Below are positions 4,427-59,739 of a stretch of DNA of 64,000 nucleotides, in pieces; position 1 is the first letter of the stretch; the number at the start of each line of letters is the position of its first letter. This DNA comes from Takakia lepidozioides (taxonomy: Eukaryota; Plantae; Bryophyta). The DNA is taken from the NCBI GenBank assembly GCA_030704615.1, contig CM060734.1, forward strand, positions 60,078,001 through 60,142,000, written 5' to 3'. A model generated the notes under the pieces. That model ran no database searches. It was given only the letters and a program-made list of their open reading frames with translations, and had not been told where the DNA came from. The position numbers and the translations under genes were made by a program.

Positions 4427-4428
4427 CT

Positions 4429-17861: not shown

Positions 17862-17915
17862 GGAAAAAGGGAAACGGAACGAACGGCAAGTACAGAAAAG
17901 CGAAATTCTTGTCAC

Positions 17916-18838
17916 ATGTGTGATCCTAGTGGACTATCCAGCAGGGAAAGTCCACTAATGAAAATAAAATCTAAAATCCAGTCACAGCGGAGACAGCCAA
18001 TAGAAAACCAGAGAAAGGATCAAGAAAATGGAGGGAAATTGAGCGCAAGAGGCGGCGTCGTTCTGAGTAACGGGCGTCTCGACGGGACAGACCATCAATG
18101 CTATAGCTTGGAAACTATGGAGGAACTAACAGATTATACGCTCGCAATATTACTTACGCAGCATAGACACGAAAGAACAGAGCGGAGCTTTTCTCTTGAG
18201 CGATGCTTGCAAGCCCCGCAAGCCTACAAGAAATTACCCATAGCCTTCTGTGGCAACCATACGTTTATGCTTTGTGCACTACAGGCATTTCTGCAGTTGT
18301 TACAGCCAAAACAGTTCTGTGAGTCTAAAATGAAGAGAGTGAGAGGAATGGAGGAAATCAGGGTGAAGAGCACCACAATTCTGCAGAAACAAACGATTGC
18401 TACCTCACAGGCGATACAGATACTGGAGGAGCTGAGATTGCAAGGATTGCAAAGCCTAGATTGGACATTACACCATAGACAGTACATGTTACAATTTTTG
18501 CAGAACTTTGAGCCAAAGACAGGAACAACAACGGTGAAGGGAGTTGAATTAATGATTACTCCCCTATACCTCCAGCAATTGTTTCGATTGCCAGCAGGTC
18601 AGGTGCATATGGAGGAACACAGGGCAAGACTGCAAATAGGGGACTTATTCCAAGAAGGGAGTTTCTTTAAACTCAGGGTTATGCTTGTACCAAGGCTGTG
18701 TACCCAGGGCTAAAAGAGGTAGGCCAGGTATTGAACGTTCTGATTGCCATGAAACAGAACCAACAGTATTTGAGTAGATCCTTCACGGAGGAAATACTCA
18801 AAGGCCTGAAGGGAGAAGAGGTACAATGGGCGGACATA
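17916..18838 (+). pseudogene. Start of the 3' accessory ORF of copy A, truncated
   Basis: Homologous to copy C ORFs 53766..54815 and 53043..53756. Homology stops abruptly at about 18838. Confidence 0.8.
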
Positions 18839-26500: not shown

Positions 26501-26979
26501 CAAAATTCGCAAGGGACAAGCCAACGATTACCGGTGAAGGTGAAGGAGTGTGGAGGGAGTCATATAGGATCCACACCGTAAGTAAATTTCTTGATGCTGA
26601 AGAGAAATCTCGTCCGCCATGCCTCATTTTTGACGACAGATCTGGAGCTGATGTTCTTTTTGTTGTGAGACTTGGGAATTTGAAGATTCCCGTCTTCTGT
26701 CAACTGAAGCTGCGATCTGAGGTGCGGTGGGCTAGAGCAGTGGCAACTACAGATCCGGAACAGATGTACAAGAATAGTTCCGAGTCCAAAACGAGGGTGC
26801 TTGCCGCATGCAAAGATGGTTGCATCAGCTTGGTAGTTGCCTATCCTGCAAAGAAGCCAGCTAAACTCCAATCTGAATGCCAAGATAATCGTTTAATTGG
26901 CTATATTGGACAGGTAGAAGCGGAGGATTTGTTTGACCGTGTGTTATGTGATTTCTTACGTTCTATCAAGGAGTATTGA
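23583..26979 (+). CDS. Crinkler-like (CR) effector: header + P-loop NTPase + PD-(D/E)xK REase, one frameshift near 26125
   Basis: Walker A GVSGSGKT followed by WGFFWT..GSDD, Walker B VVLDEAQ, AGTG, then MG.AWE, GADVLF and FCQLK. A putative header exon starts at 23583 (MAQGGW..); the header exon structure is uncertain. Copy 2 shows that a 1-nt deletion causes the frameshift. Confidence 0.7.
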
Positions 26980-30833: not shown

Positions 30834-31496
30834 TGTCAAGGACGAAAACATGACTGAACTAAGAGATAAGACTAGAGATACAAGGCTAGACAAGAAGTCA
30901 AGGTCGGCGTGGCCGAATGCACGATAAGTAAATAAGAATCAAGACGATCTTTATAACAATGAACAAGAGTACAAGATATTGGAACACGACTTGAGTACCA
31001 GATATTGGAAACTGGACTGGAGTACCAGATACTGGAAACTAGACTGGAGTACCAGATATTGGAAACTGGGCTAGGGTACTGAGAACTGGACTGAAGTACT
31101 GGGAATTGGAAACAAGAGTAGCTTGAACTGGTGTTGGCGAGACTGAAGAGTGTCCAGTCTCGCCTCCTATATATATTGGCTACTAAGAAACTTCCTTAAG
31201 AAGCTTCCCCTATGGAGGTGGCTTGTTGGAGAAGTTTCTAAGATTAAACAAAAGTTTCTTGATGGAGAAACTTCCTTAAACAAATGAGGTATCTTGATGG
31301 AGAAGTTTCCTCCAAAGGAAGCTTCCTGAGTAGTTTCCCAAGTTACTCTTGGTAATTTGGTAAACTCCCGGTAACTTGGTAAGTAATGGTAAATCATGGT
31401 AGATCATGATAAATCATGGTAATTTTCGGTAACATGATAACTTGGTAATTTCTGGTATTTATTTCTGGTAAGTTCTTCTGGGCTATGTCCGTGACA
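30834..31496 (-). repeat. 3' LTR of the Tcn1-like element
   Basis: TG..CA termini, ~27-bp internal tandem repeats (GAGTACCAGATATTGGAAACTGGACTG), direct repeat of 36659-36798. Confidence 0.88.
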
Positions 31497-32104
31497 TCAC
31501 CCCCTCCTCTAGCGCCGAGTTCCTCGAGGAGCGGTAAAATCTTGGACTTGCTTAGTGTTGGAGAAAATCCAAAATCCGACGAATGATACTTGCCAAGTAT
31601 TCGATTCTTCGTTCTTGACTCAAATGATTTATAGGTCCCTGCAACCATCGATAGTGTCCAACACCTTGAACTTGGGACCACGCAGTGATTTGAGCATTCT
31701 GATTTTCGAAACTGCCTTCAAACATGATTTCATTGCCCCCTAGGTCCGAAGCCTCAACCTCCAACAGAATTATCAGACTTCGAGTAGGCTCCACATGCCG
31801 TCGTACGGGGTCCAGACGAAGAAGTACGCGTCGCATTGGTGGCCCATCGTCTCGAGAGCGTCGGCGTGATGTTTAAGGTCGTGAGAGTCGGAATGGCTGA
31901 TCTGGTAGCTGGGTAAGCGACAACTCTAATGTATCTGGTTCCTGCGACTCCATACTGCCAATACAAGATGCAAGAGTGCTGGAAGTGTAGCTATATATAC
32001 TGATGTGTGGTGTTCATCCCTCCTTAGCGTGTATCAGGTACATTGAATGCGGAGTCTTCACCTTGAAGCTAAGTTGGCTGACATCATCGTTGTGACGTCT
32101 TATT

Positions 32105-35100
32105 AACGTGTAGCTCGGGGCTTAGCTGGATATCGTTGATGAAACTCTTGGACTTTGTCAGATGCATTGGCGAGGTTGGATGAAGGTTCCCACGTTCGTT
32201 TGCTGATGTCGTAGCCTTACCAATGTACGAAATACTCAAGATGTTTATACTTGATGCGAGAGTCTAGGACTTCGTCGACTTCATACTCAATTTCCTGATT
32301 GTCTTCGATTGGTGGAGGTGGTACGGAAACTCTCCCTGGAATATTCGATGGATGATACAACTCCAATAATGAAACATGAAAGACTGGATGGATGCGCATA
32401 CTTCGTGGGAATTCAAGCCGAAAACTGACCGGATTTATTTGTCGAATAATTTTGAATGGGCCCAGTCTTGATGGTCGCGAGGTTTGTATGTCCCGTCGAA
32501 GAAGCCACACACGATCTCTGACCTTGAACTGGGGTTGGAGTTGGCGACGTTGATCTGCATACTCCTTGTATTGTTTTTGAGCTTCGGCGAGGTGGAATGT
32601 AAGCTCCTTGTGAATCGTAGCAAGATGAGTAGCAAGGTTTTCTGCAGCAAAGCTTCCAACAGTCTTCATGTGGAAAGGATTGCTCGAGGATAATGACCAT
32701 AATTGGAGAAAAGTGGAGTTTGCTGGGTCGAAGAATGTATAGCGTTGTTGTAGGCAAACTCAGCCAATGACAGAAGGTCCGTCCAATTATCTTGGTGATA
32801 ATTGATCGTACAGCGAAGATACTGCTCCAAAATCTGGTTTACACGTTCGGTTTGACCATCAGTCTGTGGATGATTAGCTGTAGAAAGGTTGATCTTAGTA
32901 TCCAATATGTGAGATAATCCCCGCCAGAAATTTGATATGAACTGTGGTCCTCGATCAGATACGATGTCCTTTGGGAGTCCATGAATGCGGTAGATATTAT
33001 TGAGGAAGAGTCTTGCAGTTTCCTCGCCGGTAACTGTCTTATTACATGGAATGAAATGTGTCATCTTCGTAAAACGATCTACAATAACAAGGATTGAATC
33101 AGTGGTCTTGGAGATTGGAAGGTCCGTAATAAAGTCCATAGACACGGACGACCATGGACCCTTGGGAATGGATAATGGTTGAAGAAGGCCGTAAGGTCGA
33201 TGTCGTGGTCCTTTCACTCTAGCACACGTGTCGCAAGATTTTATAAATTCTTTCACGAGTTTCCACATCTGCGGCCACCAATAGTCCATGGATATCAATT
33301 CCATTGTTTTGTTGAAGCCGAAATGTCTTGTAGCCGGAAGATCATGACATGTTTGAAGAATTCGAAGTCGTGTAGGTCCTGGAGGTACATAGAGAAGTCC
33401 CTTGAAATAAAGTAAATCATCTTTGAACTCGAAGTCGTTTGTAACATGTAGGTTGTCTCGAGGTCGATTTAGTTGACTTCGTAGTGTCATAGCGAATTGG
33501 TCGCTCTTCGGTGCTTTCTGAATCTCCTTTATGATCTCGGCATCGTCATAGGTGGACATGGATAGCATATTCAATTGGAAATTTGGTGGTTTCAAGATGA
33601 TGGATTTCTGTTGGTCAAAAGTTGCATCTCCTTCCTTTGGCGCAAGATATGATCGTCAAGAAAGAGCATCTGGTTTTCCTTGAAGATGTCCGGGACGGTA
33701 GATAATAACAAAATCAAACCTTACTAGTGACATACTCCATCTCACTTGACGTCGATTCAAAACACGAGCACTCATAAAATATTCGAGGTTTTTGTGATCG
33801 GTATAGACAGTGACCTGATGTTTAGCTCCCTCCAATAGATGACGCCACTCCTCAAAAGCATCGATAATCACTAGAAATTCTTTGTCATGGATCTCATAAT
33901 TGCTCTCCGCAGCGGAAAATTTGTGAGAACGAAAACCAACAGGGTGGAGTCGGCCATATGTACCGTATTGTGAGAGTACCACGCCAAGTGCAAAGTCCGA
34001 TGCATCTGCTTCTAAGAAGAATGGTTTAGATGGGTCTGCATGTACCAGTATTGGAGTTGTTGTAAATGTCTGCTTCAGCCTTTCAAATGCCTGATTAGCC
34101 TTCTCGTCCCATACAAATTTGTCATTCTCTATGAGTCGTATCAATGGTGCAGCAATTTTGGAGTAGTCATTGATGAAGATTCTATAGAAATATGCAAAAC
34201 CCAGAAAACATTGTACATCTCGGACCGAAGTTGGTTTAATCCACTCGATGATGGTTTGTATTTTCTTCTGATCCATAAAGACGCCTTTGTCGGAAATAAT
34301 GTAGCCCAGAAATTCGACCTCAGATTGATGGAAAATACATTTCTCCAACTTGGCATATAGTCCTCTTTCTCTTAATTTATCAAGGACAAGGCGTACATGG
34401 CGGCCATGTTCTTCTTCGTTCTGTGAAAATATCAAAATGTCGTCCAAATAGATGACTACAAAGTCATCCAAAAATTCTCGAAAGATGTCATTCATCATAT
34501 GTTGGAAACTTGCTGGAGCATTTGTAAGACCGAAAGGCATAACACTGTATTCAAAATGTCCATACCTTGTTCGAAAAGTTGTTTTCCATTCGTCTCATTC
34601 TTTTATCCGTACAAGGTTATAAGCTCCTCTCAAGTCGATTTTGATGAAAATCTTCACTCGTCCCAGCTGGTCGAGAAGCCCAGAAATCAGCGGCAACGGA
34701 TAACGATTCTTGATTATGACTTTGTTGAGACCGCGACACACATGCGTAATGATCCGTCCTTCTTTTTCACAAACAAGATAGGCGCCCCCGCGGGTGATTT
34801 GGAATGTCGGATGAAGTGCTTTGACAAATTTTCATCAATGTATTCGTGTAATGCAGCCAACTCCGTCTGGGATAAGTTATAGATTGGGCCGAATGGTGGT
34901 TGGGCTCCTTCTTGTGACTCAATTGCACAGTCATAAGGTCGATGTTCTGGCAATATGTCTGCATTTTTCTTCTCGAAGACATCTTTGAAATCTTGATATT
35001 GAGCGGGTAATGTTGAAGTACCTTTGTCTGTTGTGGTCTTGATCGGAGTCGCATAAAGTGCAAATGCCGCCTCTTTTTTTGTAGCTCTCATGAAGGCTCT

Positions 35101-35601
35101 AGCTCCAAGAAATAGGGGTTGAATACCTTTGGTACTTTTGCATTTTTGTCTTGCCGAAATTTTTCGTGATTGCCAATCGATGTCAGGATTATGAAGTACA
35201 AACCAGGGAAGTCCAAGGATCACAGGATTCGTTGGAGACTGGATGACATCGAAAACAATCTGTGATGCTTGATTTTTAAGCTTCACTTCAAAGGGTCAAG
35301 TTTCATGGTCAACATTTCCTGATGCTAACGGTCGTCCATCGATAACTTCAACAGGGGCCGAGAATTTTTTTCTTACGAGCGTTAAATTGTGTTGCTTCGC
35401 AAAGTCTTTGTCAATAAGACACGTTGAAGCGCCCGAGTCCAAAAGTGCTTCTACGGAGATATCTCGATTTTGCATCCTGATCTTTACTGGAATTGTGAAA
35501 CAAGATACAGGGTCTGGAGGTAGAAAGAGACCTTTTTTTGGTGAGGAATTTGGGGTGTCCAGCCGCATGGTCCCTACTGTGACTGGACATCTTTGTTTTC
35601 C
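32105..35601 (-). pseudogene. pol: pol (protease, RT, RNase H, integrase, chromodomain), with stops and frameshifts
   Basis: LLDSGAS, YLDD, ADASDFA, SMDFITDLP, SDRGPQF, QTDGQTER, chromodomain EYEVDEVLDSR..YFVHW*GY..TWEP. Confidence 0.92.
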
Positions 35602-36620
35602 GACCTTCTCGTATCGAACAATTGAGTGGTGCCCCGAGCTTTGAATCTTCTCTTGTTGGGGCAGTTTAATGTCATGTGATCATTTTCTCCGCAATAAAGG
35701 CATAATCCATTCGAGCGCCGTCTTTGTTTTTCTTGTGGCGTCAATGGCTTGAATCGGACAACATCAATCTGCATAGGATCATTACCGGATGTCTGATGGA
35801 TCGTTGTATTTGGTACCGTAGTAGCAGCGGCATGGTGCGTCGTCAACCATCCAGATCGCTTCTCTTGACGTCTTTCGAACAAACGATTATCGCATGCAAT
35901 GACTTGGGTGATGAATTCGCTCAGTGTACTCACGTTTGGCATTGTCAGCAACAAATCCTTAACATCATCTTTTAAGCCACATCGAAACTGACTAATGATG
36001 CTCTTCTCATTCCAGTCAAGGTCGCACGCAAGTTGTCGAAATTCGGCAGCATAAACGGAAGCTGGACGTGCTCCTTGTCGAAGATTTTGCATCTTTGTCT
36101 CTGCAACTCTCTCTCTATCATCCTCTCCAAACGTTGCAGTGAACTCGGACATGAACGCTTCAAAATTGTATAGTAAATGCGAATTTTTCTCTAATAGCGG
36201 TGCAAACCAAGATAGGGCAGTGCCTGATAGAATGGTGCCCACGAATCCCACTTGAATATCTTCATCAGAGTAGCGTTGTGGATATAGTAGTAGGAACAAT
36301 CGTACTTGTTGAACAAAACCGCGAAATCTTGATCTCGTCCCATCAAATTTCTCGGGCATGCTGACCTTTGGTTCCCTTGTAATCTGTTGAAGATTTGGAG
36401 AAACCGTTGCAGTAGGATTTGTTGTAGTAGGGACTCGTAAGGTTGAAGATCCATTGTTCGACTTCTTCAACTCTGAAATTTGTTGTTGCAAATTGTTGAG
36501 AGCATTGCCAAGGTCTTGAGATTGATCAGCTTGTAGTTGGGCAATAGAGGCACGAATTTCTTGCATCTGGAGTTGAAGACTCTGCAATGTGGCGACCATT
36601 TCCGCAAATGTGCCTTCCAT
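35574..36620 (-). CDS. gag: gag (348 aa, intact frame)
   Basis: Coiled-coil N-terminus, PEKFDGTR, DPMQID, CLYCGENDHMTLNC. Confidence 0.92.
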   Translation of the reverse strand: MEGTFAEMVATLQSLQLQMQEIRASIAQLQADQSQDLGNALNNLQQQISELKKSNNGSSTLRVPTTTNPTATVSPNLQQITREPKVSMPEKFDGTRSRFRGFVQQVRLFLLLYPQRYSDEDIQVGFVGTILSGTALSWFAPLLEKNSHLLYNFEAFMSEFTATFGEDDRERVAETKMQNLRQGARPASVYAAEFRQLACDLDWNEKSIISQFRCGLKDDVKDLLLTMPNVSTLSEFITQVIACDNRLFERRQEKRSGWLTTHHAAATTVPNTTIHQTSGNDPMQIDVVRFKPLTPQEKQRRRSNGLCLYCGENDHMTLNCPNKRRFKARGTTQLFDTRRSENKDVQSQ

Positions 36621-36798
36621 CTTAACTAACTAAGGAACAAACTTTAGTCTCGCCAAACTGTCAAAGACGAGAACATGACTGAACACAAACAAGAGATAAG
36701 ACTAGAGGTACAAGGCTAGACAAGAAGTCAAGGTCGGCGTGGCCGAATGCACGATGAGTAAATAGGAATCAAGACGATCTTTATAACAATGAACAAGA

Positions 36799-38141: not shown

Positions 38142-38668
38142 TGTCGTGCGCATACGTATCGCTACACAACTACATCGCTGTCCAAACCACACCACACATA
38201 TATGCACAATAAAGTAGTCTGCCACAATGATAAGAAAAGCTAAGAACACACTCTTAACACAAGAAACATGAAATCCATCTCATCATCACTCTTTCAGATA
38301 ATAGTCGAGCCAGGGGCACCCCAAGCTATGGGGACTCCACCCCACAACAACCTATCCTCCCATCATAAGTACACTCAGTTCTAAACGATGAAGGAGCTCG
38401 GTCGCGCAGGCTCAACTCGAGAGAGATGAGCTGCGCGATTGACGCTCTCGTGAAGATAAGACAGTTCAGTTGTCAAACTAAACTTGACACCTGATTTAAC
38501 ACTTGACCTAAATCCAAGTGTTAAATACAAATAACTAGCTTTATTCTAGTTAGTTTCACACTGTGCTTATTTAACTTGACAGCTGTCGTGCGCATACGTA
38601 TCGCTACACAACTACATCGCTGTCCAAACCACACCACACATATATGCACAATAAAGTAGTCTGCCACA
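38142..38668 (-). repeat. 3' LTR region bounded by two identical 85-bp TG..CA repeats
   Basis: 38142-38226 is identical to 38584-38668. The PPT is adjacent to 38668. Confidence 0.8.
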
Positions 38669-38928
38669 ATCGCCCCCCTAGCTGGTGGATAGGTCCCTCT
38701 AACTCCAGATAGCTACAAGATGTAATAGCCACAACCGTACTAAGTCCTCTATCACTGTCCCTATTGTACTCAAACTCTAAAGACCAAGAGGCCGGGTACA
38801 AGAGTAGCCCCATCGTTAGTCGCCGTCTTGCAATCTGTGAACTTGAGCCAGGATCTCGTGTGTTCAAGGTCTCCTAGTAGCTTGGCCTTGCATTTCTTGT
38901 TAGCCTCCCATAGTTGTATCCACTCCCA

Positions 38929-39072
38929 CTATCCAATGCATTGTGGACATAACCAATCCCCATCCGGAACCATCTCAAGAGGTGGAGTCAAGCATCCCAT
39001 ATGCCAACCTCTAGAGCATTGATCACACACCAGCATGGTGGCTGCCCCTTTAGCAGACCCACACAACATGCA
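38929..39072 (-). other. PHD finger at the integrase C-terminus
   Basis: CMLC..MLVCDQCSRGWHMGCLTPPLEMVPDGDWLCPQC, a canonical C4HC3 pattern. Confidence 0.93.
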
Positions 39073-41909
39073 CCTCAAACTTGCAGATACCACTGCCAGG
39101 TTTGGGTCACATGGCGCACAATTACGCACATGGTCCTTCCAAGTTATGCCATCCCGACCCTCCAAGACCAAGACGCCTGAGGGCAAGACCTCTCGAACCC
39201 TCAAAATAACACGTCCTGCAGTCACATCCAAGGTCGTAGGAGCAGTCTGCTGCAGATAGACATAGTCACCAGGATTGAATCTCCGAACCCCAGGACGATA
39301 GCCCCCACCACGTATGGTAGCATACCTCAACGTATCACGGTGTTGTGCAATGGCAAGGTTCTCGAAAGCCATGGGCATGACTTTCTTGAATAACTCTGCA
39401 CGCTGCTCACATGCACGTGCCCACATGTCCGGATCATCAAGGTTAAGAACTGTAGCAGCTTCCCTGCGAATGGATGTAGGCAAATCCGGCTCTCGGCCAA
39501 AGAGAAGAAAGTATGGTGAGAAGGAGGCAAGTGATGCTTGCTTGCTGAACCTGTAGCCCATGGCTAACCAGGGTAACTGAAGGTCCCAATCTCCTAGGTT
39601 CCCTTCTGCAAGCCATACTTGCGCAAACCCCTCTTTACTGTCTGAACAACTCTCTCTGCCAAGCCATCGGTCTCAGGATGATCCCGAGAAGTGGTGCGGT
39701 GGTCTATCAAGGCCTTGTCACACAAAGCCTGAAACTCCCCCAAGAACTCTCTCCCTTGGTCCGTGAGTACCTCAGCTGGAACACCGAATCGGCTAAGCAC
39801 ACAATCCAAGAATGCATACGCAGCTCCCTCACTAGCCTTATCAGGCAATAGAACCAACTCAATCCAATTGGAGAAGTGCTCCACCATCACCAACACGTAC
39901 TTGTTGTGGCGCATGGTCAGTGGCAACGGCCATGCGAAGTCAAGACTCCACCTGTAGCCCAATCCCATGATCGGAAGAGGGTGCAATTGTGGAGTAGGGG
40001 CGTTGAATGAAGCACGCACCCTGTCACACACCATGCACCTAGCCACAAATTGTTGCACCTCTGTGTGCATACCACGCCACCAATACTGCCCCTGCAGTAG
40101 ACTATGAGTGCGTCGCACCCCAAAATGTCCCAACTCCTCATGGGCATGCCGCACTAACCGTGCCCGCTGTGTTGGGTGAGGCACAATCCTCACTCGACCA
40201 TCCTCCCACATTCGGAGCAGGTGTGTCCCCTCCCACTTGAACCTCTTGGCTCGTTGTAGGATCCGATCCCTCTCCTTGGCAGTCACAGTGGCTGCCGTGT
40301 CTCCAGTGCGAAGATAGTCCAACACAGCTGAATCCTCATGTATATCTTTGGCGCCACCTTGCTCATTGCTGGCCTCAGGGTCCTCAGACACTTGATCCAC
40401 AGTCATCCCTGTTGCAGGTCCAACCTGGCCTTCCGCTGCCAAGATACACAGAAATGCAGATGCATGCCATCCGGGCACCATCTCCTCGTCCGTCTCACCA
40501 TGCCACCGAACTCCAGTGTCATTCTACTGGCTCGTGCATGGATTGTGACTCAACCCATCTGCATTGCGATTGATCAAACCCGGTCGATGCACCACCTGAA
40601 AGTCATACTCTTGAAGGATGAGTGCCCACCATGCAAGCTTCCCTGTAAGCTTGTCTGACTCCATCAACCACTTGAGTGGTTGGTGATCCGTGACAAGGGT
40701 GAAGAGATTGCCATATAGCTAGCACCTGAAGTGTGCCACGGCCCACACTGCAGCTAAGCATTCTCCCTCATATGAGCTATACTTAGACTCAGCAGCATTG
40801 TTTGAGCGGCTAGCGTAAGCCACTACGAACTCTCTTCCCTCATCATCCACCTGTGTGAGCACCGCTCCAAGCCCCAACATGCTCCAATCCGTATGCAGCT
40901 GAAAAGGACGCCCCCTGATAGGTCGTCTCAAGATGGGCGCCGAGGTCAACCTCGCCTTGAGCTCTTGAAAAGCTTGTTCTTGCTCATCTTCCCACTGCCA
41001 CTCCTGGTCCACCTTGGTCAGCTTGGTTAGAGCCTTTGCAATGGCACTAAATCCCTTAACAAACCATCTATAATAGTTTGTTAATCCCATGAAAGTTCGA
41101 ACTCGGCTCACATCCGTGGGGTGTGGAACCTGTGCAATGGACTCTACCTTAGTCTGCTGTATCCCCAATCCTCCAGGATATATCATGTGACCCAGATACT
41201 CAATCTGGTTGTGGAAAAACTTGCACTTTCCCGGAGGTAACTTCAATCCGTGCGCCCTCAAGCGCTCAAATACCCCCTGAAGGTGTCTCTCATGCTCTTC
41301 CACCATAGCACTAAAGATGATGATGTCATCTATGTAGCACCGAGCAAACTCCACCCCTGCTAGAATCCTGTCCATGACTCTTTGAAACTCTGTCGGAGCG
41401 TTCTTAAGCCCAAATGGTAAGAACCGCCACTGGTATAGGCAATCATTCCCGTGCTCATTGATCCCCCAGAATGCCGTCTTTTGCTTATCCGCCTCCTTGA
41501 TCGGCAACTGGTGATATCCGGATCGTAAATCCAACGTGCTAAAGACCTTGGCATGTCCAATGGCATCAAAGATCTCCTCTGGTGTTGGCATGGCATACCT
41601 ATCGGACTTGGTCTGACGATTTACAGGCCGGTAATCACCGCACATACGTCTCTCCGTCCAATTGCCAAAGACATCCTTCTTGGCTGGCATCACTGTGGCT
41701 GAAGCATACTCTCCCCCAGATAGCTCCACCAAACCAGCCTCCCAAAGGTCTTGAGTTCTCATCTGAATCAAGGACCTCTCCATGTCACTGTATCTATAGG
41801 GTCTCCGAAAAATTGGCGTGTCAGTAGCCAATTCAATGCGAATCTCTTGACCCTTCAGTGCTCCTAAGTCCTTCAAACTGAAGGCAAAGCAGTTCCTGTA
41901 AGCCCTCAA
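38929..41909 (-). pseudogene. pol: RT-RNase H-integrase-PHD portion of pol
   Basis: ORFs 40719..41909, 39594..40481 and 38929..39561, separated by a few stops and frameshifts. Confidence 0.92.
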
Positions 41910-42339
41910 GAACCGCCGTATACGTCGTCTCTCTCCTCCGGTGACTATAGGTCCAACATCAGGCTCCCAGTTGTCCTCCGTGACTGCAACCTTGAGTCCA
42001 GCAGGCTTAGAGGTAGAAGACGCGTCCCGTGGTTGCTATGTTGCAACCTCTTGAGCAGTGACCACTGCCTCCTCTGTCAGTGACAATGTCTCATCCTGCC
42101 CCATCATCCCATCCTTGAGGACCTCCTCAATCCGAGAAAAATCCCCAAGCTGATCCATCACCGCCGCCTTGGCTGCCAACTCCTTCTGAACCTCAAGCAC
42201 CTCCCACGTGTGCCATGGATGCGACCTGCACCTCGTGGTCCTCACCTGCTCGCCCCCACTCGCTGCCTGTACCGTCTCGGTAGGCAGGGAGACCATGAAG
42301 GGAAGTGTACTCCGTACTCTGCGCTGCTCAGCCATAGCC

Positions 42340-43285
42340 AAGCTGATAATCCAGGTCAAGCAATTGAGATCCATTGCTTGCCCCAACACCTGACGATGTG
42401 ATGCCTCAGAAAGAGATGGCACCGCCATGGTACCAGTGGTAAAACCCATTGCCCGCTCGCGCTCGTCAGCATTGGGCTCCACTAATTGTTGCAACTGGCT
42501 ATCCCACAAGAGGCCAGGTCCACCATCCCGAAAAGCATGGGATCCTGGGAAGCTGAGCAGTGTAGGTAATGCTGCTCGTGGTTGACCCACCCTGTTGACC
42601 ACTGCCACGGTCATCGTGTCTCACACGTTGAGACTGCCTCCTTGTGTCCAAAATGCTATCCACTGTGAGGTGTGTTGGCCGCTGCACCCCATCAAATGCA
42701 CGCTTGAGCAGTGTGGGTGGCATCAAGTTAGTCCACCATAACCGTGGACAATGAGCCCGTGATCCCACTGCAGCTGCATCCAGCAACACTGCTGACCCAA
42801 GCCACGACCGGACTTGATGCACACTGGCCATCACCCTAGCCCGAGAATCACCCATCAGTGGCACATTCTCCAAGATGTATGCTGGAGATACAGCTTGATG
42901 AAGCTGCAAGTGGCGCAAAACCCGCACCATCTCCCAAAATAGACCCGTCCTCGAGTCTCGCAATCCATTGCCATGCCCGGCTGATGAATGCCCTTGGCAG
43001 GGCCAACCTGCCACTACCAGATCAATGGAGCCAACCTGCTCCAAATCCTGCGCCCCCAGCAACGAAATGTCTGCTTACAAGGCTTGTTGGTATCCACGAA
43101 CTGCAGACACTGGCAACAAATCAGGGTACTGCTGTACCATCTGAGCAACATGGCGCAGTGAGACGTGTCGTGCAGTCTCATCCCTCTCCACATACAGGTA
43201 ACGTCGAACTCGTACACCTGCCTGCAGTACTGCGGCCAATCCAGTGCTGATCCCGCCAAACAAGTCCAGAAGGCATATGCCTTCA
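42340..43285 (-). pseudogene. C5-cytosine DNA methyltransferase domain within pol
   Basis: Motif I LLDLFGGISTG, II YVERD, III ADIS, IV GWPCQGHS, V LRDSRTGLF, VI ILENV, VIII HCPRLWWTN, IX ERERAMGF, X LGQAMD. One stop (43075) and one frameshift (~42610). Confidence 0.93.
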
Positions 43286-43599
43286 TCCGGGCAGTGCCAT
43301 ACAAGAGGTGTGGTATCCAATGGCGACAACTGAGGTGGTCCTGGTGCAATCACCGCACTCTCCTCTTCTCCTGACGGTACGAAGGCCTCTACCCAGGCTT
43401 GTTGCACCCGTCCATCAGCAGCCTGCTGCAAATCCTTGCTCGTACCCCACAATGGAGTGTGAGCAACCATGGCAGGCAACTCCGCCGTATCATGCATGTC
43501 ATCCTGCTCTGCTGAAGGTGGCACATCCTCTGCATGGGCATTGCCTTCCAGCAACTCTCCAGGCCAACTAACTGCAGCTGTAAAGGCGGCTAGTGTTGG

Positions 43600-44413
43600 C
43601 ATCCTGCCCCGCTGGGCAGCCGCAATACCTCCAATAAATATCACAGGGAGCTGTACACGACGACCCTCCCCTGACTGCCATCCAGGCCTATAAGAAGCTG
43701 ACTCCTCCCAAAAATCCAGGGTGAAGCCCATGGGGTACAACACTGCCCCACCAACCAGGACATCGTACGAGACCGCGTCTGTCACAATGGCCTTGGCTCG
43801 CATCACTGAGCCATCTGTAGGGTGATCCGGCTGTAGTCCAATGGCCAACTCACCGTGTCATGCCCCGAGCCTGCTCTGATCCTCCCAAAGATGTCTGTAT
43901 CTGGAAAGAACAAGGCTCCATATCCGCCTCCATGAGGCCCAAACGTGCAATAGCAGCTCTGCCCAACATCAGTGGCTGAGCTCCCGAGTCCAACAAGACC
44001 CGCAGTGGCCGGTACTTCTTACCTGCCGGTCCACTCAAAATGAAAATGCCATCCTGGTTGTCTAACAAGACAACTCCAGGTGTCACCATGGCGCGCTCAA
44101 AGGCTGGCCTAGCTGGCAGCTCCGTCAACCTGACAGCTGCAGCTTGCCATGGCGCAGCCGTGGCAATCTTGACCCTCAAATCCGAGGATCCCTCTGCCAC
44201 TACACCTTCCACTAACTCCGCAGAAGATGAAGTGACCTCCCCACTCTCACAGAGTGTTGCTGCTAGTCTGAACACTGCAGCTGGTCTTATCCCCGGCGTC
44301 GCAATCATGGTTGCTGAGAACAGTGGGGCTTGACACACAGAGGTGGCTGCCCCCAACAACACATCGGCTGCACTAGCCTTAGTAGCAAGTGTCAGTGATG
44401 CACGTGTAGGCAT
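43600..44413 (-). pseudogene. Aspartic protease region of the DNMT-bearing element
   Basis: VLLDSGAQP...YDVLVGGAVL, in the same frame as MTase motif I in ORF 43075..43848. Confidence 0.8.
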
Positions 44414-45141
44414 TTTTATGGGTTCTGTGGAGTCTGGGACTTAGACACTTCTATGGGTTCTGAGGGGTACCCTTAATTTTTTGAGATAGACCGTCACAGC
44501 CATACACAGCCCATCACAGTCAGTCACAGCCCGACATAGTCATAGCCCGTCACAGCCATACACAGCCAGTCACAGCCCAACACAACCCGATACAGCCGTC
44601 ACAGTCTGACACAGTCGCACAGTCAGTCACAGCTGTCACAGTCATAGGGAACGGTTATCATGACAGGGAACGACTGTGGGGAACAACATCTGCCGGGGAA
44701 CATGTAATTCACGGAGGACGGTTAGTGAAGGAAAACGGTTAGAACAGCGCGTAAGGAGATAAAGCGGGCAGCGGAGACGAGAGGGGGGACTTTTTTGGGA
44801 CGGAGATCACTCCTGGGGGAGGACTGAGATCGAAGGAAGGGAAGCTGGCGAGGAGGAAGGAGATACTATAGGACAGAGTTAGTACGAGATGTAGGATTAC
44901 TTAGAGGGATAGATTAGAGAAGTTAGGACATCAGCATGTATCCGATTATGATTAATCTGATTCTCATCCGATACAAACACCTTGTGTTGAGAGACTTGAG
45001 TGAAGCTGTGTATGAATGAAATCAGGGGGGCCCAAAGAAGCAATCTGACGCTTCAAAAGATACTTGGTCAAGATAAACAGGGAATATAAACTGATAAGGA
45101 ATGTAATTGGAAACCCAACAATGATTCACTAGCTGCAGGTC

Positions 45142-45783
45142 ATGACTGATTGTTTCACGCGGGCTGAATGCTTAGAGATATCCAACTCTTCTATCTTGGA
45201 GTTTCCCCCTCGGATAGCGAAGGGATGGGTGAGTAAAAGCCGTGTGACATTTGGCGACCATACTGGGGAACTGAGTCATGAACAACCAGATGTGACAGGC
45301 ATCTGGTGGGATCATGGTGGTTGGAGGATTAAAGAATTTGATGTGAATCAAATTCCCTGTGGAACGAAGGAAGAAAGATTGTCCAAACAATTCTTTCAAA
45401 GGTTCTTGGAATTGCCAGACGGTTGTAAAGAAAATATTCTTAAGCGAGTGCATGATGCTGATCCGGAATGGGGTCTGGAGAAAGGAGTGATAAAGATTTA
45501 TCAGGTAGCCTGTAGAGGAAGAGCACGGTGGTTACCAACATTGGTTTATGTGATAGCCTTGCTATCTATTAAGCGGGTAGAGTTTGAAAGCTGGGAGGAA
45601 AGGAAAGTGAATGTTTACACTCATATGCATGAGGAGCTTGTATTGGTAAAGAATTGGATTCCAAAGGATATCTTGTGGATCAAACTTACACCAAGAACAG
45701 CTTTTCAGACTTGTTTACCATATGGTTATAGAATTTTGGTTGTTGCCACACTAAAAGAAATGAAAGATATGGAACATGAGTGA
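45142..45783 (+). pseudogene. ORF0 of copy B (internal deletion near the 3' end)
   Basis: Near-identical to ORF 10478..11173. The EFWLLPH* ending has been shifted out of frame by a deletion. Confidence 0.65.
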
Positions 45784-49397: not shown

Positions 49398-52300
49398 TGT
49401 CGCGCGGCTTTTACTCACCCATCCCTTCGCTATCCGAGGCGGAAACTCCAAGATAGAAGAGTTGGAAATCTCTAAGTACTCAGCCCGCTCAGAACAATCA
49501 GTCATGACCTACAGCTAGTGTATCATGGGGGTGTTTCCTATTTGTTTCCCTTTCCACATTCATGTTAGCTACCTTACCATTGATAATTAAGTATCAGTTT
49601 GCTTCATCAATCTATCGGATTCCTTCAACTCATCCATTCATTCCACAGCTTCACTCAGATCTCTCTACACAGTGTGATTGTATCGTATAAGTATCAGATT
49701 ATGATTTATCAGGTATCAGGCCGAAGCCATTGTGTCTCTAATCTCCTCTACAATATCACTACAGCTCTGCATATAACAAGCATCTACTAATCATCTCTCC
49801 TCCTTCTCCATGCTTGCTTCCGTTCTTCTCTCCACCCGATCCCCTCTCCTCCATGACCAAGAAGTCCTCCCCCTCGAGTGCTTCCAAGAATAATCATCAT
49901 CCCCCCTTAGTCCTTGCCTCTCCCTTTATCTTCCTACCCGTGGCTCTAACCGTTTCCCTCACTAACCGTCGTCCGGGAACTATCATGTTCCATTTGCAGG
50001 TGTTGTTCCCCACAGTCGTTCCCTGTCCTGCTCTCTGTTCCCTATGGTCGTGACAGCTGTGTCAAGATGTGACTGGCTGTGCGACTGTGTTTGGCTGTGT
50101 CGGGCTGTGATTGGCTGTGTGGCTGTGTCGGCTGTGACGACTGTGACGGGCTGTGGTGGCTGTGTTGGGCTGTGTCGGCTGTGACGACTGTGACAGGCTG
50201 TGTTGGCTGTGATGGGCTGTGTCGGACTGTGACGGGCTATGTTGGGCTGTGTAACCCCCATCTACAGTGCGCTGCTGTCACCCCTAAGGCTCTTGTTGAT
50301 CTCAGTCTGTGCAAAAATTAAGGGTACTCCTCAGATCCCATAAAAATGTCTAAGTCCCTGGCAGTCCTCTAACATTACCCCTTCCCCTCTCAAAAAGCCG
50401 TGTCCTCACGGTTTACTGATTGCGATTAGCAAACCTTTGTGAGTGAGCACCTTTCTGACTTTGAGAGTTTCGTGGCGGACTGTGTGTACGAGCCCGAGGT
50501 CTGTCACTGGTTGACGGAGATGTTTGAACACTACCCGGATAAGTGAGGCCCTCTGGAGGCTGATATCGAGGTAACCTTTCAGGCATAGGAGACCCCCGTC
50601 GCTTCTTTTCTGCCATTTGAATTGCATAGTCTTCTCCCATGTCAAAAGAATCCGCCGAAGAAACAGTTGTATCAGAATCCTCATCGCCTCTCAGGTGTTT
50701 TAATTGTCGAACTTTTTGTGGAATCCTCTGGGGCATACAATGTTGTCCTACCACGTCAGGAAGTTTATATTTTAAAACTTGATGTAAACGCTGAACGGCA
50801 AAATTGGTGAAGACACTGAGCTCCTTGTCTGTCCAGGTGAGTGGGGTACCAATGACTTGTGATTTGTTCAAGTATTTCCATGCCACATGTGCCTTATAGA
50901 AAATATCATCAATGCCGAATTTCTGTGTTGACAAATTGTTCCAGGCCGACTGAAACCATAAACGAATTTGAGAATCCTTTTGCATCATGACTTTTGCCTC
51001 ATATAGGTACATATGAGGTGGCACTGAAGGTAAGACCCAATGATCCCCACTGGAATAACTCAGAAAGCGCGATTGCATCTTTTGCTGCTCAATGTGATAA
51101 CGTACCAGAAAGCAAGCAGCGTAGTATAACCCACATCCCATGACAATACTCGCTACCTCTTTGGTCTTGGTATAAATGAATCCATGTACAACTTGGAAGG
51201 CAATTAATTCCCTCAACATTGTACCTGCCTCATGCCAGTATTGTGCAAAGTGATGATCTTCAATTGGTCGATTGTTCGGAAGAACGTTAGTCCTAGTTGC
51301 CACTGGCAGCCAAATGCGCATGATTTGGTAGTAATGTGCAAATGATTGCGGAGGACTAAATTCTTTCCAAGCCAAATCCAACATGATGGGAATTTGGTTG
51401 AAGGGCAGAATCATAGCCCTATTGTACTCCCTTGCAGCTGGAGTTTTAGGTGGGTTAAAAGCAGCATTGCCCCATACCTCAGACTGTGGTGGCTGTGGTG
51501 TAGTTGTAGTAACAACAGGGTCAGCTATTGGCACAGTGACTTGTTGTGTTGTTGGTGGCACTGGCTCTTGTACCATTGGCATCTCATGCACCTCCTGTGA
51601 AGAAGACTGAAAAGCTAAAGTTCTCGCTTAAAGAAGCCATTAGCTGTTCATCAGGTACACAGACTCTCTTGTCGATATTTGAAGTGAGGTCCTCCACTTG
51701 AGTCTGCAGGCCGTCTATATCCTCCTGTAACTCCGCTATCCTACTATAGACATTGTCTATAGTAGTTGTGGCAATGTTCTGCACTTGCAGCCTGAGCTCA
51801 TTCATCTCGCTTTGGGTGAGCTTTCGTGGTGCTTTGCCTTCCACTGGCCCTTGTGCTAACCAGACCTGCATAAGGTGGTTATCCACCAAGTTGCTTGTGG
51901 TTCCTCTGAGAGTGTGCTCCTCTCTTTGTTTGTACACAACTAACTGCTGTTGTAAAGCCTCCATGCGCTTCGCATGAGGTTCAACCAAATTTGCATAGGC
52001 AGCAGGCAGATTATTGGCTTCCTTCCAAGCTTTGTTAGCCACAGAGAGTTCATTTCTATTGGCCATGATCGTTTGTTGCAACTCCAGGATGTGCCTCTCT
52101 TGGTCAGCTTCAACCTGCCTGTATTGCTTGAAAGTATCCTCATTGCGACAGATTGTATTCTTCATATCGACAATGAGTTTCATTTGCTCAACATTCTCTG
52201 CCTCTGCCTTCGTACATCTTTCCGCTTGACTGTTTATTTCTATTGTAGATTGGTCAAGCATAGTTGTGAGTGTAGCACATTGGATGGCCATTTTGTCATG

Positions 52301-55074
52301 CACTGTCTGCAACTCCGTATGTTGTGCATTTACTTGTTGCAACTTGCTTTCATGCTTCACCTGCATTTGGTATAGCTGTTGCTTATGTGCTTCGTGCAAT
52401 TGGTCTTGTGCGAGGCCTGCCTCAATCAATTGTTCTTTGGCCAATTGCAAAGCCGCTTCCGTATTCTCCAAGTCTTGTTGCATCTTGATAGTGACCTCTT
52501 CATCGACCTTGTTTGCACACTTAGTGGCTAGTCGAGCCTCAAACTCCTTCCTGAGTTCCTCTCTCAAGGCTGTCAATTGGGTAATTGGAACATGGGATTT
52601 GACATAAGTCCCCAACAAATTAAGTGTCATGCCTATGGAACTCATCAGCATTGCCTGTTGAGGGTCATCATTGTGAGGTTGCTGCTGTTCCTCCTGATCC
52701 TCAACCGTGTGATGTCTCACGAACCACTCAGGCCATTGTCCCACCGGATTTTCTTCCTGAACCACTTCATCTATCACCGGTGCTGCAGTGTCATGACCTT
52801 CTACCTGTGGTACCTCCGACACAGGTGTGTGTATTATATGCACCTCAGGATTTCCCTTGGGCAACTGTTGCACCTCTGGAATCTCTGTCTCCTTGACCAG
52901 ACCAGAATATTCATAGAGAAGGTCCCCCTTCTCAATTTCTGCCACTATCTGTTCTGTAGTTGGAATATCTAACCTTTCTTTTTCCAAATCAATTATTTTT
53001 GGTAGAGCTGCATGGACAACTTGTGACCTTGTGACAAGCCGATCAGCTGGCTGTGATGGTTGTGATACTGAAGTAACTTCCTCCTCTCTCTCTGAAGGTC
53101 CTGCTTCCAGTAATAGCAGTTCTGTGCTGCTGTGCCCCTTCCTGCACATGAGCTTGGGAAACATTATCATGCGGAATCCGTGAAGCCAGTGGATCCGCGA
53201 CTACAGTCTTTCCCCGTCTCTGCCTCTTAGTCTCGGGTTGCCCTACTAGTCCACCCTCACTGTGTGAAGAGCCTTGCTCTTCCATTGCAGTGGTTTCTGG
53301 CTCAAACACTCCCATCTCCTTTCTTTCTTGCGCATCAAGTATGCCAGAATCAAGAATTATTTGAGCAATGATTGGGCCAGACACTATGATAGGAGACTTT
53401 GCGGTAGTACCTTGTAATCTTTTCATCTCCTCTACCAGTGCGTTGTACATTATGTCCGCCCATTCTACCTCTTCTCCCCTCAAGGCTTTGAGTATTTCCT
53501 CTGTGAAGGATCTGCTCAAATACTGTTGGTTTTGTTTCATGGCAAACAGAACGTTCAATACCTGGCCTACCTCCTTTAGCCCTGGGTACACGGCCTTGGT
53601 ACAAGCGTAACCCTGAGTTTTAAAGAAACTCCCTTCTTGGAATAAGTCCTCTATTTGCAGTCTTGCCCTGTGCTCCTCCACATGCACTTGACCTGCTGGC
53701 AATTGAAACAATTGCTGTAGGTATAGGGGAGTAATTACTAATTCAACTCCCTTCACCGTTGTTGCTCATGTCCTTGGCTCAAAGTTCTGTAAGAATTGTA
53801 ACATGTACTGTCTATGGTGCAATGTCCAATCTTTGCTTTGCAATCCTTGCAATCTCAGTTCCTTCAGTATCTGTATCGCCTGTGGTGTAGCAATTGTTTG
53901 TTTCTGCAGAATTGTGGTGCTCTTCACCCTGATTTCCTCCATTCCTCTCACTCTCTTCATTCTAGACCCACAGAAATGTTTTGGCTGTAACAATTGAAGA
54001 ATTGCCTGCAGTGCACAAAACATAAACGTATGGTTGCCACAAAAAGCTATGGGTAATTTCTTGTAAGCCTGTGGGGCTTGCAAGCATCGCTCAAGAGAAA
54101 AGATCCGCTCTGTTGTTTCGTCCCTATGCCACTGCGTAAGTAGTATTGCAAGCGTATAGTCTGTTAGTTCCTCCATAGCTTCAAAGCTATTGCATTGATT
54201 GTTTGTCCCTTCGCGACACCCGTTACTTAGAACGACGCCGACTCTTGCGCCTAATTTCCCTCCATTTTCTTGATCATTTCTCTGGCTTTCTATTGGCTGT
54301 AACCAATGTGACTGGATTTTAGATTTAATTTTCTTTAGTGGACTTTCCCTGCTGGATTGTCCACTAGGACCACACATGTGACAAGAATTTCTTTTTTCTG
54401 TACTTGCCGTTTGTTCCGTTCCCCTTTTTCCGTATTCATTAATGGGCCCGCCCTTCATCCGAAATGACGCGCTAAGTAGGTATTTTGACGGCCATTCTTG
54501 TCTTTTTTCTTGATGACACCTGTTCTTGCACTTCCTTCTCAGCTGTGTGTCGCGCCCTGACTTCCACGTGTCTATTTTTAAACTGGTTTCGGTCCTTTCT
54601 TCCGTCGGCCCTTTTCCTGAAGTTATTGTGCGTCCATCTGTCACTGATTCTATGGATCGTGTAACCCTAGTAGGCTGTGTTGAGTTGTGACAGGCTGTGT
54701 CATACTGTGGTACATTGTGATAGGCTGTGATGCACTGTGGTAAGTTGTGATAGGCTGTGACACGCTGTGGTAGGCTGTGTTGTGCCGTGCTGGGCTGTGA
54801 TAGACTGTGTTTCACCTTGAGGGGCTGTGATAGGCTGTGTCACGTCGTGATGGGCTGTGATAGGCTGTGTTTTGCCTTGAGGGGCTGTGATAGACTGTGT
54901 CACGTCGTGATGGGCTGTGATAGGCTGTGTCACGCTTGTTCTGCCCACCCTGGTCATATATGCTCGGCCTAGCGACAAGTGCTCCATACTCCGTTGGTAA
55001 CACTGGCGCAGCCCGTGACTGCTCTTGCGTTTAACCATGCAAATCATGTTGCAATGGTTTGTCATGGATACCAC
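49398..55074 (-). mobile_element. 'CACAGC' gypsy family copy C (3' part: repeat array, accessory ORFs, PPT, 3' LTR)
   Basis: LTR 49398-50374 is the reverse complement of the family LTR. PPT GAGAGGGGAAGGGG lies at 50377-50390. 53450-55074 is homologous to copy A 17200-18838. Confidence 0.92.
50413..54815 (-). CDS. 3' accessory ORF cluster (349, 237, 528 and 392 aa; includes a long coiled coil)
   Basis: Same-sense ORFs between integrase and PPT. The 528-aa ORF is heptad-rich. The first ORF has a V.G..L.IT...L..LF.LP segment reminiscent of plant retrotransposon accessory proteins. Confidence 0.7.
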
Positions 55075-55193
55075 TCTATTGTAGTGTGAAAAAAGAAGGG
55101 GCGTGAATCCCCTTCTGGTTAATCCTAAAATCTGTACTCCTCCTACTCGTCCCTGTTGAAGTATCAGGGCAAAGGAAAGGAGCGTTCTCTTTT

Positions 55194-56481
55194 CTGGAGG
55201 AAGATGGGATATAACGGTAGTAGACAACTATTTCAAGGAGATCACAAGCGACACCAATGACAGCACTTCCATTTATTATGCTGTGAGAGCTCTGTGTGGA
55301 GCAAAAGGCACATTTGTCCTGAAAGAAGAATCATTCAATGGTGCTTCCTTGGTGCAAAGAATAGGAACCTCCTTTGCCTATGCAGGGAGGGGAGAACATA
55401 CCGTTTCAACGGACGGAGATATGACTTTGCTCGAGTGTGGCCTTGGACAGCTACACCATTCAACAGGTTCCCAATTCACTTTCTCTATAGTCGAACCGAC
55501 AGTCCATCATAGCATCATGAACTATTTGAGGATCAACCATTCATTTGAGAAATCACTTAAAGACTACATGGTTGATTGCAAGGATGATGCCAGTGCAATG
55601 GGTAGGGCATGGGAGAAACTTTTCACAGTTCATGTGGCCAAGCTGTTTGACGGCACAAAATTGTTGGCCAATATGTGCTGTTTCAAGGATGCAACCCTGC
55701 CTCCAAAATTCGCAAGGGACAAGCCAATGATTACCAGTGAAGGTGAAGGAGTGTGGAGGGAGTCATATAGGATCCACACCATAAGTAAATTTCTTGATGC
55801 TGAAGAGAAATCTCGTCCGCCATGCCTCATTTTTGACGACAGATCTGGAGCTGATGTTCTTTTTGTTGTGAGACTTGGGAATTTGAAGATTCCTGTCTTC
55901 TGTCAACTGAAGCTGCGATCTGAGGTGCAGTGGGCTAGAGCAGTGGCAACTACAGATCCGGAACAGATGTACAAGAAAAGTTCCGAGTACAAAACGAGGG
56001 TGCTTGCCGCATGCAAAGATGGTTGCATCAGCTTGGTAGTTGCCTATCCTGCAAAGAAGCCAGCTAAACTCCAATCTGAATGCCAAGATAATCGTTTAAT
56101 TGGCTATATTGGACAGGTAGAAGCGGAGGATTTGTTTGACCGCGTGTTATGTGATTTCTTACGTTCTATCAAGGAGTGATGGGGACAAATTTTGTGATGG
56201 CTCATGGAGTATTGAGAAGGTGAGATTCATTGGGATACTGGCTCTATTTTTTTGTGTTTGGTGACATTTCTATATTCTCTTGTTGCTGTCACACCTTTCC
56301 ACAAGTATACTACTAAGTTAGACTGCTTCTGTATTCAACCATGGACCAACTTCAAGAACCTGTGAAAAAGGGACACAAATTAATGACAAGTATGTTTTCA
56401 TGAACCAATCAATGAGTTCATCAGCTTTGTGTTACACTGCATGATACGATGGTGTGACAAGTTTGCAGGATATTCCAAAAT
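55194..56481 (+). pseudogene. 5'-truncated duplicate of the Crinkler-like gene (REase half + 3' UTR)
   Basis: Near-identical to 25992-27252. ORF 55283..56179. Confidence 0.9.
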
Positions 56482-59118: not shown

Positions 59119-59739
59119 ACGGCAAGCAGCTACCTCTTTCAACAAGAGGTCAGGCCCGAACCGCACAACCGGTTATGATACGGGAGGCCGGAAACCTTCA
59201 GCGAGGGTCAACGGCAAACCAGCCACAACGGCCATGCAATAAATCCTAAACCCTAAACAGACCATGCATTAAACTCCTTCTCGAGTATTGCGTGTTAGAT
59301 GAGCATCTAAGTCGTTCTCTACTGTGTCTATTCTCTAGCAAAAGAGATAGGGTATTATTCTCATGTCATCTCAGTGAAATAGTTTCAATCACATATATTT
59401 GCCTTTTTGCATATATTTGCAGTTGCATCTTAGAACATCTCAACAACACTTCTTTTTTAGCTTTATGTCTCTCTGGATCAACGCTATTAGTTTTGATTCC
59501 CAGGATCTAGATATCTATTTTTTTTGGTTCGGATTGTGTTCTTATTGCACCCGGTGCATTCGCGGTCCGCATCCTGTTGCACTGCTACATTTGTCTCCAC
59601 TCTTTTATAGACCCTAAACCCTCAACCCTAAACTTTTTCGGAGCATAACCGGGCCCCCCTAAAAACTTTTTAGTTTGCACTGTGCTATTATTGCACCCGG
59701 TGCATTCGCGGTTCCAATTTGTTGTACTGCTACATTTGT

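Follow-up and report, generated by a model that had tools for sequence, protein, structure and literature searches.

Does a methyltransferase that lies inside a moss retrotransposon belong to that element, in what amount would it be made relative to the other enzymes, and what would it do there? These questions are raised by a Ty3/gypsy element with a cytosine-5 (C5) DNA methyltransferase (DNMT), which occupies positions 44404-38142 on the minus strand of a 64-kb stretch of Takakia lepidozioides DNA, the whole of which is called the window here. The element is a dead copy of a green-lineage family that has a DNMT3-type methyltransferase on board. This methyltransferase is an integral, complete, and unrearranged domain between the protease (PR) and the reverse transcriptase (RT), and it is followed by an in-frame stop codon that is a family-wide design and not decay. 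As a whole, we somewhat favor a reading in which the DNMT stands at the end of the Gag-PR frame, RT, RNase H (RH), integrase (INT), and PHD finger are reached by readthrough, the cDNA is methylated, and integration uses an internal junction of long terminal repeats (LTRs).

Stop Codon between the Methyltransferase and Reverse Transcriptase Frames

The stop reads TAG CAA CCA (42038-42030, minus strand) and is in frame with the coding sequence on both sides. In four sequencing runs (three samples), no alternative letter reached 2% at 42030-42040, and positions 42028, 42029, 42041, and 42042 vary. Among 80 metagenome loci, which were fetched by their DNMT, 51 were examined at the homologous site, 4 with long linker insertions and 25 without one flanking match being left out; TAG or TAA was found in 50 of the 51 and TAC in the remaining one. 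With near-duplicates merged, the stop was present in 43 of 44 clusters, the window counted. It weighs against this evidence that a single burst family accounts for 41 of the 44 junction clusters, which leaves DNA support for the stop from about five lineages. Two relatives keep the site within long frames: in L032, about 6.5 kb of one frame holds only two stops, one of which is TAG CAA CCA, and in L082, whose DNMT is 50% identical to the query, a Gag-PR-DNMT and an RT-RH-INT-PHD frame have TAG CAA TCA as their sole break. Five full-length Marchantia proteins also terminate at the residue homologous to the stop.

The original prediction, made from the sequence of the window alone, had placed the DNMT inside pol. 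Because the stop at 42036-42038 is family-wide and ends the Gag-PR-DNMT frame before RT, this placement does not hold. Nor does the single PR-DNMT-RT-RH-INT-PHD open reading frame (ORF) that was expected of intact copies apply to the window family; one-ORF versions occur only in a sister clade (P0300/P0380), and a DNMT in the RT/RH frame only in sister clades (P0300/P0380, P0219). Quite probably, most ribosomes would stop at UAG-CAA-CCA and yield Gag-PR-DNMT, while a minority would continue. If this readthrough holds, DNMT would be made and packaged at the level of Gag, and RT and integrase at a fraction of it.

Methyltransferase Domain and Its Possible Role

The motifs named in the original prediction all occur on the minus strand, and in the order that it gave, which is protease, C5 methyltransferase, RT, RH, INT, and PHD finger. 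The end of the gag-protease spacer and the N-terminal half of the aspartic protease lie at 43853-44404 (LLDSGA, 43979-43996). The protease C-terminus, a linker, and DNMT motifs I-II (43078-43857; motif I LDLFGG, 43252-43269) share one open frame (43075-43857), as had been noticed. The DNMT3-type catalytic core (42613-43074, PF00145) contains motif IV with the catalytic Cys (WPCQ, within AGWPCQG at 42991-43011), motif VI (ENV, within YILENV at 42862-42879), and motif VIII (RLWWTN, 42727-42744); motifs IX-X (MGF, within ERERAMGF at 42441-42464, and LGQAMD at 42369-42386) and the C-terminal tail of the Gag-PR-DNMT frame follow at 42039-42620. Beyond the stop (42030-42038) are RT and RH (40524-42035; YIDD, within CYIDDII at 41319-41339) with two extra stops (40719-21, 40524-26), and then the integrase (39090-40523), which has an H2C2 zinc finger, a D,D35E core (D, D, and E at 39933-39950, 39744-39767, and 39648-39665), a C-terminal part, and one frameshift. 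The predicted PHD finger at the integrase end is found at 38938-39072 (PF00628). Pfam E-values in the window were 7.6e-13 for DNA_methylase (PF00145), 2.5e-32 for RVT_1, 1.3e-13 for rve, and 2.3e-11 for PHD. The PR-RT-RH-INT order and the DDE integrase are those of ordinary Ty3/gypsy elements.

The DNMT motifs run from I to X in order, in which DRM differs, and the closest PDB sequence matches, obtained with L032 as an uninterrupted relative, are DNMT3A/B (E 1.2e-11). DNMT3A/B are also closest to the alignment-based predicted fold of L032 (pLDDT 96.7; TM 0.74/0.84 to 6f57). A stand-alone host DNMT3 or DRM gene is ruled against by this motif order and by the colinearity of the DNMT with the retroelement domains. 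Read depth was alike over DNMT and RT in host-like runs, which is not a copy number. Viral contigs gave weak partial methyltransferase matches or none, and a search of the Atlas gave generic C5-methylase clusters and nothing more specific.

Of 185 full-length domains, 162 keep the PC motif pattern of the catalytic Cys and 173 the EN pattern, and residues W95, C97, Q98, E140, N141, R180, and R182 are conserved in at least 90% of 78 aligned sequences. The ratio of nonsynonymous to synonymous differences (pN/pS), a crude NG86 estimate with saturated synonymous sites, was 0.24-0.29 in eight of nine pairs of the window DNMT with its relatives and 0.44 in the ninth (against L062); for comparison, RT gave 0.18-0.25 in eight of nine pairs. 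Close pairs of old copies gave 0.36-0.86, as expected for decay after insertion. Judged by these ratios, the DNMT is under purifying selection, and on this point as well as on the catalytic Cys the domain bears out what the original prediction supposed.

As to its role, we lean narrowly toward a step in which the protease releases the DNMT, and the DNMT methylates cytosines of the fresh cDNA inside the particle, so that the insertion would arrive already marked, host-like or pre-dampened. The methylated context would probably be CG because of the likeness to DNMT3. Methylation of cDNA by a retrotransposon DNMT was proposed by de Mendoza et al. (PMC5890265). Alternatively, the DNMT may act on host chromatin or older copies, as self-limiting silencing or target marking, or be a non-catalytic binder of DNA or RNA in the particle, which we consider unlikely yet worth keeping in view. 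Several observations count against cDNA methylation and toward this alternative: the enzyme of the Klebsormidium element KnitGypsy-Dnmt3 showed no methylation in yeast, a result that its authors deem inconclusive (PMC5890265); the CpG observed/expected ratio of the window copy (0.50) falls among those of other window elements (0.13-0.93) and reveals no special CpG loss; DNMT at Gag-level abundance would exceed the need of one cDNA; and 23 of the 185 domains fail the PC motif pattern. Nevertheless, the conservation of the residues listed above argues against a non-catalytic or host role, and in each of the three arrangements described below the domain remains part of the polyprotein, next to Gag-PR, RT, or integrase. 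A non-catalytic role is also at odds with the Symbiodinium DIRS Dnmt3 domains, which methylate CG de novo in yeast (PMC5890265). From what is known of its family, the PHD finger would read histone H3 tails and bias target choice.

Permuted Ends and Target-Site Duplications

The extent first given for the element (38929-44413) needs correction at both sides, as the element continues to 38142 with a B-A-B end that had not been listed, and 44405-44413 is foreign because the LTR of another gypsy element cuts the DNMT element at about 44405. In the direction of transcription, the right end consists of a purine tract (a G run, 38671-38679), repeat B1 (87 nt, 38584-38670, ending CGCACGACA), GC, repeat A2 (an LTR-like unit of 353 nt, 38229-38581, whose 5' twin A1 lies outside the window), and repeat B2 (38142-38228), which is identical to B1 and forms the right end of the element, with read depth dropping beyond it. 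The layout of ordinary LTRs, in which twin LTRs are found and the polypurine tract adjoins the 3' LTR, is absent: the ends are permuted and the tract precedes B1, not A.

Complete relatives have the order A-coding-B-A-B (L036, L056, and L060) or A-coding-B (L025, L029, L037, L038, L042, and L078). TG...CA ends with a target-site duplication (TSD) were found in the relatives, the window copy having no left end. A 4-bp TSD lies between the start of A and the end of B in 9 of 10 two-ended loci (8 perfect and 1 with one mismatch; L056, among the ten, has a damaged left end), so that A-start and B-end are the tips that the DDE integrase inserted. The same two sequences meet head to head inside the element, where the B1|A2 junction reads GACA-GC-TGTCA (38577-38587) in the window, L023, L060, and L082, and differs by transitions in L036, L056, and L071. 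The type II locus L083 ends CGCACGACA GC TG after a purine tract of its own. The A2|B2 join is imprecise: L048/L049 keep 9 nt of primer-site sequence there, and L036 has about 19 additional nt. A stretch of 11-13 nt after A1 pairs with sequence about 30 nt past a TATA-like box; the primer site of L082 has another sequence than that of the moss-type family, yet pairing is found in both. In self-priming of the Tf1/Sushi type the stretch is 11 nt long.

These features suggest a route that, all steps taken together, we regard as fairly probable. Priming looks self-primed, in that the 5' end of the RNA would pair with the complementary 11-13 nt that directly follow repeat A. The plus strand would be started at the purine tract before B, and the cDNA would be [BA]-coding-[BA]. 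The integrase then likely cuts the internal CA/GC/TG palindrome of the GACA-GC-TGTCA junction and would insert both resulting ends, and host repair would join the free tips, either before insertion or after it, to give A-coding-B-A-B or A-coding-B. Cleavage of a palindromic LTR-LTR junction by HIV-1 integrase in vitro has been reported (PMC1905944). Against this route stand the self-priming complement, which pairs at 10 or more of 11 positions in only 12 of 20 old copies; the expected mirror product of a cut at the other junction, A-B-A-coding-B, which was found at 0 of 22 left ends; and the A-coding-B forms, which may derive from assembly collapse or later B1/B2 recombination.

Template switching of the DIRS/Ngaro type could instead produce a linear DNA whose tips are A-start and B-end and which would integrate in the ordinary way and need no internal cut. 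The observed layout is that of DIRS split direct repeats (PMC5890265), which speaks for template switching, as do the missing A-B-A-coding-B left ends. However, it leaves unexplained the purine tract before B1, the extra bases and leftover primer-site sequence at A2|B2, the palindromic 2-nt spacer that is invariant from moss-type to algal-type elements, and the six A-coding-B insertions with a 4-bp TSD (one mismatched). We therefore think template switching rather unlikely and prefer the cut at the internal junction.

Expression of the Reverse Transcriptase Frame

The RT-RH-INT-PHD part is likely made by readthrough, judging from the context of the stop. The CARYYA pattern follows only 7 of the 5481 stop triplets in the window, and this stop context occurs in three lineages. 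In SIRE1, env is expressed by readthrough of a stop followed by CAR YYA. CARYYA is the readthrough signal of tobacco mosaic virus (TMV), for which 32% readthrough was measured in a plant reporter (PMC2754532).

The downstream proteins might also be produced by splicing of the Ogre type (PMC6317226), with TAG as the 3' acceptor and the DNMT possibly skipped, or by reinitiation. The moss-type burst family lends this some weight, since it has CAA CCC after the stop (a 5/6 match to CARYYA), an in-frame ATG three codons after TAG, and a pyrimidine-rich, splice-acceptor-like run before it. Readthrough is further disfavored by L062, which reads TAG TAG CCA, and by RNA folding 3' of the stop, in which no shared structure was found (z +1.1 to -2.8). 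Splicing and reinitiation are opposed by the late position of the first in-frame Met past the stop (residue 85 in the window, 48 in L032, and 117 in L082), by the exact preservation of the frame over a single stop in intact copies, and by the CARYYA context in three lineages. TAG has changed to TAA in 11 of 41 rows, against an average of 0.075 where G stands in a comparable third position; this speaks weakly against splicing, because the copies with TAA lie dispersed over a star-like tree and may have changed after insertion. On this evidence, splicing or reinitiation appears improbable, and readthrough is preferred.

Distribution and Arrangements of the Family

The catalytic piece of the window DNMT matches 30 longer proteins among 1160 candidates, the top ones from Calypogeia and Marchantia at about 70% identity, with Sphagnum also represented; homologues in these three genera are 57-74% identical. 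Profile searches add Marchantia paleacea, Closterium, and Scenedesmus (via cluster names), and 519 clusters (50% identity) score E 1e-30 or better against the DNMT profile. No protein named Klebsormidium nitens was among the matches listed (in one listing, 120 of 260), and relatives from Closterium and Scenedesmus were present. In the metagenome loci, whose flanks were judged only where room existed, gag/PR lies beside the DNMT in 59 of 61 with room upstream, and RT/RH/INT/PHD in 55 of 62 with room downstream. The surrounding transposons might suggest that the methyltransferase entered the window copy as a nested insertion, or that this copy alone captured it from a host gene. That idea has virtually no chance and is refuted by the gag/PR and RT/INT flanks, an architecture shared by dozens of loci and several genera, by intact L082, and by the congruence of the RT and DNMT trees, so that the original prediction was right to call the domain integral.

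Three ARRANGEMENTS were found among DNMT-bearing retroelement proteins. Type I is Gag-PR-DNMT (27 proteins of at least 600 aa), with a frame that ends 60-170 aa past the domain in full-length cases; type II is RT-RH-DNMT-INT-PHD (43 proteins, Scenedesmus included); and type III has DNMT and RT in one frame, as in Closterium P0075, with P0300 and P0380 representing whole Gag-PR-DNMT-RT-RH-INT frames. Separate RT and DNMT trees, which had been proposed as a check, were built; for type II they drew on 22 RTs taken at random together with P0027 and P0028 (22 type II rows in total, of 58 RT-bearing proteins), and they took in no host DNMT3/DRM and no K. nitens sequences. The RT tree has a type I clade (100/99) and a type II clade (96/88), and in the DNMT tree the type I proteins of land plants group together (99), as do 21 of the 22 type II rows (97), with type III not being one clade. 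The two trees agree in their branching, and this fits one old DNMT capture with later moves within the element. More tentatively, we envisage an ancient clade of green-lineage retrotransposons, found in liverworts and mosses, that delivers DNMT3 at capsid abundance via a leaky stop, integrates with its DDE integrase through a palindromic LTR-LTR junction as the normal route, and leaves its new copies pre-methylated.

Several other members of these groups were observed. In Marchantia, Mp4g09160, Mp5g06330, Mp5g06860, MpVg00370, and MpVg00540 (P0010, P0347, P0348, P0340, and P0341) are full-length Gag-PR-DNMT genes annotated as hypothetical, and two of these five frames are on the male V chromosome. 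L082 and L083 are intact or near-intact DNMT retrotransposons in contigs binned with bacterial metagenome-assembled genomes, probably as eukaryotic contamination, and P0084 likewise carries a bacterial-methyltransferase name. In the type II element of L083, the frame upstream of RT-RH-DNMT-INT-PHD runs into it with a -1 overlap (3061-3148), which suggests that this element uses frameshifting instead of readthrough. L056 carries a second DNMT-bearing lineage, more divergent and heavily decayed (1895-4546, minus strand, and 17438-18644), and the divergent P0181 of Calypogeia falls close to type II.

State of the Copy and Neighboring Sequences

The copy is decayed, as was first reported, with stops at 43075-77, 40719-21, and 40524-26, frameshifts near 43852, 42607, and 39599, and gag outside the window; only the stop at 42036-42038 had to be taken out of this tally. 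Variation in the family was taken from public DNA runs, with 40 of 614 difference rows listed. Other family members have other letters or indels at 43076-77, at 40523/26, and at the three frameshifts, and the stop at 40719-21 is not among the 40 rows listed. Gag and repeat A1 were searched for in the 64-kb window and neither was found; both are cut off by the LTR of the unrelated Ty3/gypsy element (44405-45250, plus strand, borders approximate). Loose ends in the public DNA runs show family members diverging from the window behind 44409.

The copy sits within a nest of other transposons, and no tRNA genes were found in the window. Long extra ORFs that lack a Pfam match (50413-54839, minus strand, and 17097-18838, plus strand) adjoin 10-bp tandem arrays in a large gypsy family, of which two copies lie in inverted orientation; the CpG observed/expected ratio of this family is 0.13-0.21, strongly depleted. 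Another gypsy element (30834-36798, minus strand) has a C-terminus that is chromodomain-like by eye and is almost undepleted in CpG (0.93). Two overlapping ORFs at 24662-26979 (plus strand), with a partial copy at 55160-56179 (98-99% identical), resemble a fungal Crinkler-type NTPase/nuclease (Atlas 0.96 to Mucoromycota clusters and 0.89 to a Crinkler cluster; no Pfam match), possibly a mobile or horizontally acquired gene. A broken RT at 59663-60905 (plus strand) is Penelope-like by eye (GTAMGS, RYIDD), with no Pfam match for the part scanned, and a Pogo/Tc5-type DNA transposase (HTH_Tnp_Tc5, E 2.2e-7) is located at 62072-63999 (plus strand).

Significance and Comparison with Known Systems

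In the literature searched, to which Repbase, theses, and subscription journals did not belong, nothing was found on this family in land plants, on the stop, or on the mechanism of the ends; thus, the occurrence in land plants, the DNMT before a conserved stop, and the A-coding-B-A-B ends with a 4-bp TSD and a palindrome were not found in print. The word 'methyltransferase' is absent from the available text of PMC6317226, PMC7466625, PMC10508981, and PMC9985172, and that of PMC6453930 has no relevant passage. Retrotransposon DNMTs of streptophytes and dinoflagellates are restated in PMC12344493. A 2019 opinion paper holds that 'land plants, such as tracheophytes' lack DNA methylases of transposons (PMC6338049); bryophytes have them, and bryophyte DNMT gene counts may include DNMT-bearing elements. 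The role of a retrotransposon cytosine methyltransferase has been open since 2018, the hosts then known being hard to work with, and the full-length Gag-PR-DNMT genes of Marchantia polymorpha bring the question within reach of experiment in a genetic model for which methylation mutants exist. From the conserved stop follow predictions of how abundant the DNMT is and where it acts. Whether an LTR-LTR junction can serve as the true substrate of integration is a long-standing question, to which the permuted ends are relevant; they also suggest a reason why the family could escape tools that depend on twin LTRs.

Known systems resemble single parts of the element. The TMV-type UAG-CARYYA signal is likewise a stop followed by CAR YYA (PMC2754532), whereas the stop of the window family divides Gag-PR-DNMT from RT-RH-INT-PHD, with readthrough predicted there. 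In the self-priming Ty3/gypsy elements Tf1/Sushi and Tcn1, the primer site past the 5' LTR complements sequence just after the TATA box (PMC6317226); unlike them, the window family has a PHD finger and permuted ends, and no chromodomain was found in it. Retroviral two-LTR junctions also present head-to-head att sites with a short spacer (PMC1905944), but they form on DNA circles and are cleaved in vitro, whereas the window junction is element-encoded and matches both integrated ends. Gypsy-7a_cRei of Chlamydomonas is another green-lineage Gypsy element with a PHD finger, with no DNMT among its listed domains (PMC9940879).

Closer likenesses are found among the elements of de Mendoza et al. (PMC5890265). 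SymbioDIRS-Dnmt3 and SymbioLINE-Dnmt, which acquired their DNMTs independently, are retrotransposons with a C5-DNMT, and A-coding-B-A-B repeats are known there too; however, they use a tyrosine recombinase or a LINE endonuclease, and the window family has a DDE integrase and 4-bp TSDs. With rve and H2C2 integrase instead of a tyrosine recombinase, and with these TSDs, the window family does not belong to DIRS/Ngaro. KnitGypsy-Dnmt3 of Klebsormidium nitens is a Gypsy element with DIRS-like repeats and the DNMT in the RT frame, and its publication makes the original prediction of an undescribed system too strong. The comparison follows its main-text description, in which 'PHD' and 'Marchantia' occur 0 times; its supplement may show domain order or a PHD finger. 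Gypsy domains, an intronless unrearranged Dnmt3-type DNMT, purifying selection, and DIRS-like split repeats are common to both, so the predicted kinship with Klebsormidium elements is upheld, and the two very probably share ancestry. The window family differs in its land-plant host and in the stop, and it is set apart from KnitGypsy-Dnmt3 because its DNMT is not in the RT frame.

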